Of a stretch of DNA of 20,000 nucleotides, positions 5,224 to 13,041 are shown one piece after another. Numbering within the stretch: the stretch's first letter is position 1; every line of letters starts with the position of its first letter. The translations under genes and the position numbers were made by a program. The notes below the pieces were generated by a model. It ran no database searches. It was given only the letters and a program-made list of their open reading frames with translations, and had not been told where the DNA came from. Origin of the DNA: an uncultured virus (IMG/VR IMGVR_UViG_3300011756_000031) (Duplodnaviria > Heunggongvirae > Uroviricota > Caudoviricetes); IMG/VR virus record IMGVR_UViG_3300011756_000031; one strand, 5' to 3'.

Positions 5224-5356
5224 CGGCGACCTGAACGCGATGCTGGATGAAACGGAGGCCGCTTGGGCGGCGTGTGCTGACAAAGTGGACACGATAATTG
5301 CGTGCCAGGAGCGAGATAATGAACAAGCCGCAGTCTTTACGCCGCGCCCTGAATGA
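5066..5356 (+). CDS. lysC: Outer-membrane spanin lipoprotein (Rz1-like, LysC)
   Basis: Signal peptide with lipobox LSGC; GCPRVTHC and WAACADKVDTIIACQ motifs; overlaps lysB and R as in P2. Start may be GTG 5066 or ATG 5072. Confidence 0.87.
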   Translation: MKMRICAAGLTLLCLLMLSGCGSVRPSPEVQLTVIGCPRVTHCRLERSAPRSNGDLNAMLDETEAAWAACADKVDTIIACQERDNEQAAVFTPRPE

Positions 5357-5750
5357 GGCTGTGCCTTATGTCCGCAATAACCCGGACAAGCTGCACCTGT
5401 TCGTGGATAACGGCTCACTGGTGGCAACCGGTGCCAGCTCTATGTCATGGGAATACCGCTACACCCTGAACGTAGTGATCGAGGATTTCAGCGGGAACCA
5501 GAATCTGCTGATGGCCCCGATTCTGCTGTGGCTCACTGCCAATCAGCCTGACGCTATCAATAACCGTGAGTTGCGCGAAAAGCTGTTCACCTTTGATGTG
5601 GATATCCTGCGCAATGATGTGTGCGATATCAGTCTGAACCTGCAGTTGACGGAGCGAGTGCTGGTAAGCACTGACGGGGGCATGTCGAGCGTTGAGGCGG
5701 TGCCAGAACCGGACGTATCGGAAGAAATGTGGACGGTGAAGCATGGATGA
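5319..5750 (+). CDS. R: Tail completion protein R
   Basis: Start moved to ATG 5319; MNKPQSLRRALN..., NPDKLHLFVDNG, SWEYRYTLNVVIEDFSG, LQLTERVLV. Confidence 0.92.
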   Translation: MNKPQSLRRALNEAVPYVRNNPDKLHLFVDNGSLVATGASSMSWEYRYTLNVVIEDFSGNQNLLMAPILLWLTANQPDAINNRELREKLFTFDVDILRNDVCDISLNLQLTERVLVSTDGGMSSVEAVPEPDVSEEMWTVKHG

Positions 5751-6195
5751 TCTGCAGAGGGTGGATGACTGGCTGGCGGCGTTGCTGGCAAATCTGGAGC
5801 CTGCCGCACGCAGCCGCATGATGCGTCAGCTGGCGCAGGAATTGCGCCGCAGTCAGCAGCAGAATATCAGGCTGCAGCGAAACCCGGACGGGAGCGGCTA
5901 TGAGCCGCGCCGGGTAACGGCCCGCAGCAAGAAGGGGCGCATCAAGCGCCAGATGTTTGCAAAACTTCGCACCACAAAATACCTGAAAACCGCTGCCAGT
6001 GCGGATTCTGCCAGCGTGCAGTTTGCGGGGAAGGTGCAGCGGATTGCGCGGGTGCATCATTACGGCTTAAGGGAGCGAATGAGAGGAGGCGGACATGTAG
6101 TTGCTTATGCCCGCCGAGAGTTACTTGGTTTCGATAGAGATATTCGAGCAAACCTGCTTGATTTTATTGTAAAAAATCTTGCTAAAGATGATTAG
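5743..6195 (+). CDS. S: Tail completion / virion morphogenesis protein S
   Basis: QQQNIRLQRNPDGSGYEPR, MFAKLRTTKYLK, RIARVHHYGLR motifs; 150 aa. Confidence 0.92.
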   Translation: MDDLQRVDDWLAALLANLEPAARSRMMRQLAQELRRSQQQNIRLQRNPDGSGYEPRRVTARSKKGRIKRQMFAKLRTTKYLKTAASADSASVQFAGKVQRIARVHHYGLRERMRGGGHVVAYARRELLGFDRDIRANLLDFIVKNLAKDD

Positions 6196-7013
6196 AATGC
6201 TTTGTTCAAATCTATATCATAGCCAGCAGATTTTAATTCTTTGGCTACTGTTAGCTGCCATGCGCTATCGCTAATGTACACAACACCGCTAATATCCCCA
6301 GGTAACTCTACATTTCCATCGACAATTGGCATAACTCGTTCCCGGCTAAGTAGACCGATAAGGAGACCATGTTCAAAAACAACGTTCTGCCTAGCCCTAG
6401 GGTTAAGGGTGCCTTTCTCGGCTTCAGTTGAGCTGTTACCCAAGTCATCCTCGGTGTAAAGCACTAATGCGAAACCGACATCAGTATAATGCTCGAGTTT
6501 CTCTATTATCGTTTTGCCCTTACTCGCTTGCTCATGAAGGATTACTGGATCCAATCCTAGTTTAGAGACAAATCGAGCCGTTCTTTCCTTAACTGCCTCG
6601 CCATGTCCATGGACAATAAAAACGCGATTGTTTTGCGGGGTTGATGATGGAGTTTCTTCGCTAATATTGTCTTCTTTAGTCTCTGGCGGTACATATTCAC
6701 CGCCTTCAAGATCCATGATTAAAGAGTCAATGTAAGCTGCATATCTCCCACCATCGTTATTCAAAAACCAAGTACCTGCATCTTCCCACCGACTGATTGC
6801 TGAGAAAGAATAGCTAATCATTTTCTGATCGAAACGTGCTGATTCAGCAGGCAATGAATTATCAAGTATCTCTCTTGTTTTTCGCTTCAATGCCTCGAAT
6901 CTGTTACGACCAAATTCTGTTCCTCTAGTTGAATATGCTATGACGACCTCTTCTAAGAGACGCCGCTTTAGTTGCACTAACTGATCAACAATTTCGTTCT
7001 CGGGTTGTGTCAT
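6192..7013 (-). CDS. Accessory (moron) protein: unrecognised N-terminal domain plus CAP12/Pycsar-type TIR-like nucleotide-binding domain; putative anti-phage NADase
   Basis: aa130-250 carry RVFIVHGH, LGLDPVILHEQ, TIIEKLE, FALVLYTEDD, RARQNVVFEHG, ELPGDISGVVYI, typical of the PF10137-type TIR-like family; AT-rich and antisense to flanking late genes. Confidence 0.88.
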   Translation of the reverse strand: MTQPENEIVDQLVQLKRRLLEEVVIAYSTRGTEFGRNRFEALKRKTREILDNSLPAESARFDQKMISYSFSAISRWEDAGTWFLNNDGGRYAAYIDSLIMDLEGGEYVPPETKEDNISEETPSSTPQNNRVFIVHGHGEAVKERTARFVSKLGLDPVILHEQASKGKTIIEKLEHYTDVGFALVLYTEDDLGNSSTEAEKGTLNPRARQNVVFEHGLLIGLLSRERVMPIVDGNVELPGDISGVVYISDSAWQLTVAKELKSAGYDIDLNKAF

Positions 7014-7046
7014 TTTTTTTCATCCGCGCAAAGCTGTGTGTAGATA

Positions 7047-7076
7047 ATCATAAAGAGTAATTGTATCTGCTGCCAT
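7047..7076 (-). promoter_or_regulatory. Putative sigma70 promoter for the TIR gene
   Basis: Minus strand ATGGCA (7076-7071), 18-nt spacer, TATGAT (7052-7047), about 35 nt upstream of ATG 7013. Confidence 0.45.
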
Positions 7077-7126
7077 ACAAAAGCTCTCGTTATCAAATGG
7101 TTGAATCTTTCACCATTATGTCTGAA
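7061..7126 (+). promoter_or_regulatory. Late promoter P_V with Ogr-family site; leaderless V transcript
   Basis: TTGTAT-N8-ATACAA palindrome (7061-7080, contains TGT-N12-ACA); -10 CATTAT at 7114-7119 places +1 at the V ATG (7126); no SD. Confidence 0.82.
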
Positions 7127-7704
7127 TGAACGCACAACTCACAGAAATCATGCGCCTTATTACCAACCTGATCCGCACCGGCACCGTGACCGAAGTGGAC
7201 CGGGAAAACTGGCTGTGCCGGGTAAAGGTGGGCGAGCTTGAAACCAACTGGATTAACTGGCTGACACTGCGTGCCGGCGGCGGTCGTACCTGGTGGTGTC
7301 CGTCACCGGATGAACAGGTGGTAGTGCTGAGCCTGGGCGGCAATCTGGAAACCGCCTTTGCGCTGCCCGCCATTTACTCCAATCAGTTTGCACCGCCGTC
7401 GGATTCCGTGGATGGCTGCGTGACGGAATACCCGGACGGAGGCTGGTTTGAGTACGAACCCGCCACCGGGCGCTGGCACGTCAAAGGTATCAAATCAATG
7501 GTGATAGAGGCGGCTGACAACATCACCCTGAAAACAGGTGAGTTTGTTGTGGAAGCAAGCAACACGCGCATAAACAGCGAGGTGGTGATCAATGGTGGCG
7601 TCACCCAGGGCGGCGGTGCCATGAGTTCTAACGGGATCGTGGTGGATAACCATGCCCATATCAAAGTTATGAAAGGCGGCGATACCTCGGGAGGCCCGGT
7701 ATGA
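7126..7704 (+). CDS. V: Baseplate spike protein V
   Basis: NLIRTGTVTEVD, WWCPSPDEQVVVLSLGGNL, YPDGGWFEYEP; C-terminal HxH (DNHAH) metal-binding tip. Confidence 0.95.
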   Translation: MNAQLTEIMRLITNLIRTGTVTEVDRENWLCRVKVGELETNWINWLTLRAGGGRTWWCPSPDEQVVVLSLGGNLETAFALPAIYSNQFAPPSDSVDGCVTEYPDGGWFEYEPATGRWHVKGIKSMVIEAADNITLKTGEFVVEASNTRINSEVVINGGVTQGGGAMSSNGIVVDNHAHIKVMKGGDTSGGPV

Positions 7705-12871: not shown

Positions 12872-12875
12872 CAAA

Positions 12876-12902
12876 AGGCCGCTTATGCGGCCTCTTTTTT
12901 TT
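12876..12902 (+). terminator. Rho-independent terminator closing the V-W-J-I-H-G operon
   Basis: AGGCCGC-TTAT-GCGGCCT stem-loop followed by C and T8, directly after the G stop. Confidence 0.88.
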
Positions 12903-12983
12903 GCCTCCTTATTCCGGCAGGTGATGCAAAGGAAACATGGTGATTTAGCCCCCACGCTTGCGGGAATTTTTTAACCCTTTCGT

Positions 12984-13041
12984 TGTGCCATTCCCCAGAC
13001 AAAGCCCGCCGCGTGCGCCGCGCGCATATCAACCAGAACAT
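12984..13041 (+). promoter_or_regulatory. Late promoter P_F with Ogr-family site
   Basis: TGTgccattccccagACA (12984-13001); -10-like GAACAT (13036-13041) at the same spacing as P_V; SD GGAG before ATG 13076. Confidence 0.8.

Follow-up and report, generated by a model that had tools for sequence, protein, structure and literature searches.

What is a lone TIR-domain gene doing among the late genes of a P2-type prophage? The question is raised by a stretch of 20,000 nucleotides (hereafter the window, meaning this whole stretch) from an uncultured virus of the Caudoviricetes (IMG/VR record IMGVR_UViG_3300011756_000031), in which a 273-residue open reading frame (ORF) on the minus strand stands between the tail completion gene S and the baseplate gene V. 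An original prediction, made from the letters of the sequence, interpreted this ORF as a single-gene NADase that protects the lysogen by abortive infection. The factual parts of that prediction hold, and its interpretation is reasonable but unproven. By its profile match the gene belongs to a catalogued candidate defence family, PDC-S35; it travels as a single-gene cassette, and its N-terminal domain recurs in front of many other effectors.

Domain organisation and the predicted TIR active site

The protein is divided into an N-terminal helical domain (N-domain), a linker and a C-terminal TIR domain, laid out on the DNA as follows.

6192..7013, minus strand: TIR gene, 273 aa with an ATG start; PDC-S35 family; four-helix bundle, disordered linker and CAP12/Pycsar-type TIR
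6690..7013, minus strand: N-domain, residues 1–108; four-helix bundle of up-down topology, a candidate module for input (sensing or assembly)
6627..6689, minus strand: linker, residues 109–129; acidic, Ser/Thr/Pro-rich, pI 4.05, variable in length and sequence
6192..6626, minus strand: TIR domain, residues 130–273 and the stop codon; the part matched by Pfam is residues 130–248 (6270–6626)
6372–6374, minus strand: codon of Glu214, the catalytic glutamate predicted by alignment

Pfam assigns residues 130–248 to PF10137, the CAP12/Pycsar TIR family, with 122.4 bits against a cut-off of 24.7 (E = 1.3e-35) and coverage of profile positions 1–116 of 119; it is the sole family at E ≤ 1, and it accounts for the TIR-like motifs that the original prediction had noticed at residues ~130–250. 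At the same threshold there is no match in Pfam to the ThsB-type TIR family PF08937 or to TIR_2 (PF13676), nor in Pfam or NCBIfam to STING, SAVED or cNMP-binding families. The matches at E ≤ 0.01 in a PDB sequence profile search are Cap12 (9lmq, 1e-7; 7un8, 5e-5), PycTIR (8jsj, 2e-3) and one unrelated chain. Foldseek, given the whole AlphaFold2 (AF2) model, returns as its best matches the TIR-STING structures 9lmq and 7un8, SARM1 and the SPARTA TIR. Among the PHROG families, the TIR part is matched by 16442, which has no assigned function.

The motif RARQNVVFEHG lies at residues 206–216, and the proposal that its Glu214 takes the catalytic position agrees with two alignments. Glu214 is invariant in 35/35 members of alignment A1, which comprises 35 full-length relatives that are 46–81% identical, and in the PDB profile search it is matched to the NVVFE-F-G glutamate of the Cap12 chains 9lmq and 7un8, which we take to be the catalytic residue of Cap12. 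A literature search on SfSTING with E84A found no paper; a preprint on related amoeba TIRs, in the portion available, regards the corresponding residue as putatively catalytic.

The invariant N-terminal residues in A1 are R18, V23, G31, G35, R38, F83, G88, S97, L98, D101 and E106, and this block is followed by the variable linker and then by the highly conserved TIR domain with Glu214. The AF2 model of the full protein, computed on A1, has a predicted local distance difference test score (pLDDT) of 77 and a predicted TM-score (pTM) of 0.47; helices are placed at residues 5–30, 32–53, 57–65 and 79–103, residues 114–126 of the linker are disordered with pLDDT below 50, and an α/β TIR domain completes the chain.

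Membership and spread of the PDC-S35 family

In PADLOC-DB v2.0.0 the model PDLC05005 (PDC-S35) matches residues 23–272 over profile positions 13–262 of 264, with E = 2.1e-75 and 251.9 bits. The TIR effectors of the cyclic-oligonucleotide-based anti-phage signalling system (CBASS) and PycTIR in the same collection are far weaker, at 1e-10 to 7e-7, and with the Cap12 equivalogs of NCBIfam, whose cut-off is 450 bits, the scores are only 30.3 and 26.5. On this match the TIR gene is a member of a catalogued PADLOC candidate family, with nothing different in kind. The novelty assumed for it falls with the near full-length match, and by the original prediction's own rule novelty is all that such a match refutes. 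Four more PDC-S35 models match residues ~113–272 only, so that PDC-S35 holds several unrelated N-termini. PDC systems number 145; these candidates come from genes that lie within BREX, DISARM and type I restriction-modification loci, as described in the accessible part of the source (10.1101/2024.01.29.577857).

A word-indexed protein search, in which 8000 candidates were scored and 7355 had E ≤ 1e-3, finds full-length relatives of ~270 aa in Citrobacter, E. coli and Salmonella at 78–81% identity, and others in Yersinia, Klebsiella, Vibrio, Serratia, Stenotrophomonas and further genera. A scan of species-representative genomes gave 580 relatives in 600 matched stretches, from which 80 loci were kept; members occur in free-living marine, soil and sediment bacteria and are spread over many phyla. 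In IMG/VR, 164/217 candidate viral-contig stretches encode relatives. Against phage records, megablast with the TIR gene gave no match and tblastn gave partial TIR matches only, in 5 records. More distant TIR relatives (57 loci) are mostly 254–295 aa long; the hidden Markov model (HMM) of the N-domain alignment A2 is undetected in their N-termini (best E 0.012), and 41 of the 42 scanned with Pfam have the TIR alone, the other carrying a Schlafen AlbA_2 domain. The family is sporadic and mobile, and its members are single genes.

The N-domain

The original prediction recognised no sensor in this protein. That statement stands for STING, SAVED and cNMP-binding domains, but it is incomplete, because the conserved residues 1–108 form a domain that recurs before many effector types and is a candidate sensor. 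Predicted alone by AF2, this N-domain has pLDDT 89.3 and pTM 0.80, with helices at residues 3–30, 32–53, 55–65 and 79–103. A Pfam scan of the N-domains of 22 members assigned no family (13 families appear once each, best E 0.022), the PDB sequence profile search found no relative (best E 0.27), Foldseek against the PDB gave no match at E ≤ 1e-3 (best 1.2), and an ESM Atlas search gave no score of 0.9 or above. VIA-align against 48,161 chains gave a best Z of 9.0, below the ~13 advised for helical bundles, and its matches are generic (CheA HPt, designed repeats, Bpa, a flagellar chaperone and the QseE sensor). Among the matches listed, none resembles a STING, SAVED or cNMP-binding fold. A two-copy complex prediction on alignment A2 scored 0.00, gave no answer and is evidence neither way.

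An exhaustive search with the N-domain profile over 1.84 billion representatives gave 124 matches at E ≤ 1e-3, with 79 at E ≤ 1e-10. The 89 proteins of at least 198 aa were scanned with Pfam, the 35 shorter ones, mostly fragments, being left out, and the following families were found behind the N-domain.

PF10137 TIR: 31/89, one weak
TIR_2: 16/89
CHAT: 3/89
PNP_UDP_1: 2/89
MCU: 2/89
EAD7: 2/89
CarboxypepD_reg: 2/89, one below cut-off
GGDEF: 1/89
Guanylate_cyc: 1/89
DpnII-MboI restriction endonuclease (REase): 1/89, E 1e-52
SH3_3: 1/89
Weak matches (Nuc_deoxyrib_tr, DUF350): 2/89
Low-complexity, probably spurious: 1/89
No family: 24/89

The N-domains of 20 fusions are collinear with that of the window, sharing V23, G35, P55, F83, G88, D96 and L98; position 42 is Trp in them and Leu in the window. 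The REase fusion has an N-domain of the same subfamily as the window and keeps G31, R38, S97 and D101. Judged by these matches, the N-domain is a reusable module with many effector partners. Modular immune proteins usually place one conserved input domain before many interchangeable outputs, toxic or signalling, and the occurrence of the N-domain before so many interchangeable effectors suggests that it is an input module.

A metagenome scan for the second N-domain subfamily gave 8 loci. In the window and in 31 loci (L001–L023 and L096–L103) there is one N-domain ORF per locus at E ≤ 1e-3, so that a paired-adaptor role of the EAD type between neighbouring genes is unsupported. Two proteins of ~200 aa, P0224 and P0236, consist of the N-domain and an EAD7 adaptor only; this hints that in some lineages the N-domain may pass its signal to a separate effector protein.

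The S–V slot and the exchanged cassette

The surroundings of the TIR gene are defined by the following features.

5298–5750, plus strand: tail gene R, by PHROG
5743–6195, plus strand: tail completion gene S, PHROG 26
7126–7704, plus strand: baseplate gene V, PHROG 9992; first gene of the next late operon
6067..7125, no strand: variable cassette, running from ~40 codons before the end of S, through the TIR gene, to the region upstream of it; G+C content (GC) 0.418 against 0.56 for the window

The window is the late region of a P2-type (Fels-2-like) prophage. Its PHROG matches give a complete P2-type late gene set, with terminase, scaffold, capsid, holin, endolysin, spanin, R, S, V, W, J and I and, further 3′, tail fibre, sheath, tube, tape measure, U and D; the late genes are on the plus strand, terminase being the exception. 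The antisense ORF that was said to interrupt this region is present at 6192..7013. It is convergent with S, the two stop codons overlapping by 4 bases, and it is the only gene between S and V, no further free ORF of at least 60 aa being found in the slot. As proposed, the slot has no partner gene: no CD-NTase or pyrimidine cyclase lies between S and V, and no ThsA-type neighbour was found in the window or in the 21 genomic loci described below.

The composition of the gene is foreign. The counts of G and C given for it are exact (18/60 at 6181–6240 and 23/60 at 6841–6900, against 40/60 at 5761–5820), and in a sliding window GC falls to 0.39–0.47 over 6100–7100 compared with 0.55–0.62 in the flanks. 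The TIR gene has a GC of 0.427 and a third-codon-position GC (GC3) of 0.361, whereas R, S, V, W and J have a GC of 0.55–0.61 and a GC3 of 0.53–0.73.

Comparison with related phages defines the unit that is exchanged. The window is 87–88% identical to Fels-2, RE-2010 and SEN8; homology to RE-2010 and SEN8 ends at 6066 and to Fels-2 at 6077, and it resumes at 7125/7126, exactly at the start of V. In each of the phages compared, S ends in a different stretch of ~40 residues. From these breaks and the differing ends of S, the exchanged unit is 6067–7125 and includes the 3′ end of S. Both flanks are covered in 24 of the phage records listed: 19 are short forms without insert, 3 rows are of the RE-2010 type and 2 rows are SEN8. 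Fels-2 has 68 bases between S and V. The slot of SEN8 holds an antisense FRG-domain gene that matches PDC-S15, and that of the nearest provirus (G002) holds another FRG/PDC-S15 gene. In RE-2010 the slot is filled by gp27, an antisense 283-aa gene (L081:1194–2045) with no Pfam or PADLOC match, and in the nearest genome (G001) by an unrelated antisense 339-aa gene (L092:355–1374) with no PADLOC match. The S–V gap of P2-type phages is thus a recurrent swap site for single-gene candidates, which include TIR, FRG and genes of unknown family. By their position, RE-2010 gp27 and the 339-aa gene of G001 are unexplored candidates.

P2 itself has an accessory gene here, as the original prediction stated. 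In the P2 record, orf30 is nonessential, lies on the opposite strand between the O-operon terminator and the V-promoter activator site, and is followed by V, which is marked as the start of the V operon. From the parts of the literature available, orf30 is among three P2 loci that collect horizontally acquired genes (PMC3091744), phage R18C has a different ORF at the orf30 position (PMC6823313), and the P2 hotspot of Rousset et al. is another one, between gpA and gpQ (PMC9122126).

The same slot is used by relatives of the TIR gene. An ortholog with 74% nucleotide and ~80% protein identity lies antisense between S and V of a related prophage in 3/5426 complete E. coli genomes. S and V flank the gene at 8/79 viral loci, 71/79 being without an S/V flank. 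The gene of L104 is 81% identical and antisense in the S–V slot; those of L107, L109, L110, L111 and L115 are 47–49% identical and antisense, with S and V there ~50% identical, and several of these five are probably one lineage. Antisense placement as a silencer during the phage's own late transcription was kept as a side idea only, because the genes of L112 and L171 are co-directional with S and V.

Stand-alone state, mobility and selection

Full-length matches define 21 genomic loci (L001–L017 and L020–L023, with L018 and L019 duplicating L017). Their 118 neighbour ORFs have no family in common and include no conserved partner; the TIR gene is a single-gene system without an obligatory partner. 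Genes of mobile elements or phages adjoin it in 6/21 loci (transposases, resolvase, integrase, capsid with KilA-N, and Ogr/Delta), and defence-type neighbours are seen in ~4/21 (a Cap15 receptor, NERD with DUF6602, Uma2 with a STAND-like ATPase, and HipA); at the remaining loci the neighbours are housekeeping genes.

Compared with the E. coli ortholog, synonymous sites are saturated (136/181) and nonsynonymous divergence (dN) is 0.124 overall, with 0.037 in the TIR domain and 0.207 in the N-domain. This pattern is the one expected of a conserved effector beside a faster-evolving input domain, as which the two parts may be read. A DNA contig from another run is near-identical over 5932–7173, with 17 differences, and has diverged flanks. 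Taken together, the divergence from the ortholog and this contig indicate that the cassette moves between phage backbones and is under purifying selection.

Two Shewanella loci look like the insertion footprint of a one-gene cassette. In L016 (7368–9320) a TIR cassette of ~1.2 kb lies inside a HAD-hydrolase gene, with HAD residues 1–107 before it and 97–248 after it, so that ~11 codons appear duplicated at both junctions; in L023 (6942–7688), from another Shewanella, an uninterrupted HAD gene precedes the TIR gene.

A separate arrangement is seen in an uncultured Psychrosphaera (L001, 6323–7860), in which the TIR gene directly follows a gene with a Cap15 cyclic-dinucleotide receptor domain. 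Before the Cap15 gene comes a 291-aa ORF with no Pfam match, and the TIR gene may thus adjoin a CBASS operon.

Three short contigs from runs labelled as RNA lie inside the gene (6329–6527, 6204–6433 and 6777–6924), with none on the flanks. Since these runs were picked with the TIR gene, two of the RNA labels are guesses and DNA carry-over is possible, the contigs are not counted as evidence.

A proposed mechanism and its rivals

The reading that we favour, with a probability of roughly 0.6, is that the TIR gene encodes a prophage-borne single-protein sensor-effector that would deplete NAD+ and so abort infection. In the lysogen the protein would presumably be expressed from a promoter of its own and stay inactive. 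The N-terminal bundle would sense a cue of infection by another phage and gather copies of the protein, whose TIR domains could then form a composite active site around Glu214, as in TIR-STING filaments. The assembled TIR domains would hydrolyse NAD+, the infected cell would no longer support phage growth, and the lysogen population and its prophage would be protected. We infer the NADase activity, the defence function and the trigger, as well as activation by assembly, the last being borrowed from TIR-STING.

Several observations weigh against this reading. Expression in lysogens is presumed only, the three short contigs being possibly DNA. The N-domain is a generic bundle (Z 9.0), so that no function can be read from its fold. 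The majority of the 21 genomic loci lie outside defence islands, with many housekeeping genes among the neighbours. The family is sparse in Enterobacteriaceae, where 3/301 species genomes matched at E ≤ 1e-20, in the TIR part only. Antisense placement is not universal: in L112 the gene is on the same strand as S and V, and so is the relative in L171, which has another N-terminus. The word-indexed search with the N-domain, made over longer proteins, gave 75 matches, of which 74 are ~270-aa PF10137 proteins, so that the diversity of effectors rests on the single exhaustive search, whose representatives are unannotated and carry no genomic context. The authors of the PDC systems themselves label their 145 candidates as untested, in the part of their preprint available (10.1101/2024.01.29.577857); a second preprint, seen to a similar extent, excludes PDC systems as unvalidated, and a literature search on the name PDC-S35 found no paper.

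The gene could also serve its prophage in another way, as a fitness or exclusion factor that acts, for example, in exclusion of P2-type phages or satellites, as an addiction toxin, or in the tuning of NAD metabolism or lysis. The association with the S–V slot is long-lived, extending across very different P2-type lineages, many genomic copies lie outside defence islands, and P2's other accessory genes are narrow exclusion genes, Z/fun being tabled as ‘phage exclusion’ in the portion of the review at hand (PMC3091744). We nevertheless consider it unlikely, because the family is spread over many phyla and mostly found outside P2-type phages (71/79 viral loci and the 21 genomic loci are without S/V), and the cassette has no antitoxin-like small ORF. 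Distinctly improbable, in our judgement, is a TIR domain that makes a signal or otherwise leaves NAD+ undepleted, producing a ThsB-like NAD-derived nucleotide for an unlinked effector. Bacterial TIRs of Thoeris make signalling molecules, according to the available text of a preprint (10.64898/2025.12.03.692087), and the N-domain is itself fused to the signal makers GGDEF and cyclase; yet PF08937 (ThsB) is not matched at E ≤ 1, the nearest sequences and folds are the NAD+-depleting TIRs Cap12 and PycTIR, and the 21 loci show no conserved neighbour, a one-gene cassette that moves alone being unable to rely on a partner.

The protein might instead depend on a host system in trans, as an orphan effector that answers the nucleotide signal of an unlinked CBASS or Pycsar cyclase; its N-domain would then be a nucleotide receptor of a new kind. 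The TIR subfamily is indeed that of Cap12 and PycTIR, and in L001 the gene adjoins a Cap15 cyclic-dinucleotide receptor gene, but there is no cyclase in the slot, 20/21 loci have no CBASS or Pycsar neighbours, the NCBIfam Cap12 score is 30 bits against 450, and the N-domain is unlike STING, SAVED and cNMP-binding folds among the matches listed; we regard this as very unlikely. AbTir, TcpC and BtpA combine a helical N-terminus with a C-terminal TIR domain, and prophages often carry virulence cargo. A Tcp-like virulence factor acting on eukaryotic hosts would be of similar size and domain order. It is close to negligible as an explanation here, since TIR_2 (PF13676) is not matched at E ≤ 1, no Tcp-type chain appears in the PDB profile matches at E ≤ 0.01, and the family is found in free-living marine, soil and sediment bacteria. 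Foreign composition, together with an expression that is only presumed, would suit hitch-hiking cargo with no function in this prophage; to this we assign very little weight, the ORF being intact with all invariant residues, the TIR domain being under strong purifying selection (dN 0.037 at saturated synonymous sites), and the near-identical contig over 5932–7173 having been preserved despite its diverged flanks.

Comparison with known systems

The single-protein sensor-effector proposed here is closest to PDC-S35, which it resembles in the near full-length HMM match, the single-gene state and the C-terminal PF10137 TIR domain. With CBASS Cap12 (TIR-STING; 7un8, 9lmq) it shares the TIR subfamily, the fold and the aligned glutamate motif, but the domain order is reversed, the Cap12 TIR being near the N-terminus and that of the window C-terminal, and the window protein has neither a STING domain nor a CD-NTase operon. 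PycTIR (8jsj), from the pyrimidine cyclase system for antiphage resistance (Pycsar), also has a C-terminal PF10137 TIR behind an N-terminal input region; its PADLOC match (E 7.1e-7), however, is confined to the TIR part, and no cyclase gene is adjacent in the window. Thoeris ThsB differs in that the window gene has no PF08937 match and no ThsA-type neighbour.

Among the moron loci of P2 (the orf30 slot, Z/fun and the TO-region), orf30 corresponds in its position between the terminator side of S and the V promoter, in its opposite strand and in being nonessential foreign cargo, whereas Orf30 itself (261 aa) is an unrelated protein with no Pfam or PADLOC match. Rst_TIR-NLR of the P4 satellites is likewise a single-protein TIR defence on a mobile element of the P2/P4 family, as far as the accessible text describes it, but it comprises an N-terminal TIR, a STAND NTPase and TPR (PMC9122126), while the window protein, 273 aa long, has a four-helix bundle and lacks an NTPase.

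Should the cassette prove protective, one of PADLOC's 145 PDC candidates would gain its first function, and at 273 aa its product would be a very small TIR immune protein. It would also be convenient for studying how a TIR NADase is silenced and switched without a STING, SAVED, NLR or Argonaute partner. Stand-alone TIRs were discarded in a systematic survey of TIR signalling systems, in the part of it available (10.64898/2025.12.03.692087). Added by the present analysis are the S–V gap as a swap site, an exchanged unit that includes the 3′ end of S, and the reusable N-domain module. Since the N-domain recurs with many effectors, a trigger identified through escape mutants in one system may hold for the whole set, and the S–V gap could be mined like the gpA–gpQ hotspot.

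A wider reading is possible, although we hold it tentatively and think it somewhat doubtful. The N-domain may be a widely reused input domain of single-protein immune systems, a four-helix bundle of ~100 residues that answers one class of infection cue and switches on at least ten kinds of output, those named being two TIR families, CHAT, nucleoside phosphorylase, a DpnII-type nuclease, an MCU-like pore, EAD7, GGDEF and a class III cyclase. On this view PDC-S35 would be a single branch within a larger modular family, and the S–V gap a third defence hotspot beside gpA–gpQ and the Z/fun region.

Candidate promoter elements and other accessory sites

Two candidate promoter elements lie upstream of the TIR gene.

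7062–7079, plus strand: TGT-N12-ACA dyad, 47 bases before the V start codon and outside the TIR gene
7047..7076, minus strand: weak sigma-70-like promoter match (9/12), upstream of the TIR gene and overlapping the dyad

TGT-N12-ACA is presumably the consensus of the Ogr-type activator site. It matches 10 times in the window, where shuffles give an expectation of 3.6; the same dyad occurs between P and O (603–620 and 661–678) and before FI (12984–13001), and the P2 record annotates an activator site at the place corresponding to 7062–7079. The dyad at 7062–7079 is likely to be the Ogr-type activator site of the late V promoter, and the positions of the dyads fit retained late promoters, where the four of P2 (P, O, V and F) are expected. 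For sigma-70-like sites, 1 was found against 2.0 in shuffles, which is no evidence on its own.

The position of P2 Z/fun, the G–FI gap, is empty in the window (12872–12982, ~110 bases). In the E. coli prophages with the TIR ortholog (L085:11376–12524 and L086:11376–12524), antisense hypothetical gene(s) lie between the tail-fibre assembly gene G and the sheath gene FI. In E. coli FDAARGOS_1250 (L085:1–4217) a prophage remnant is seen, in which part of a cII-like gene is joined directly to part of a glycoside hydrolase gene, all that lies between cII and the lysozyme gene being gone; an annotated anti-phage dCTP deaminase gene lies just outside its integrase.

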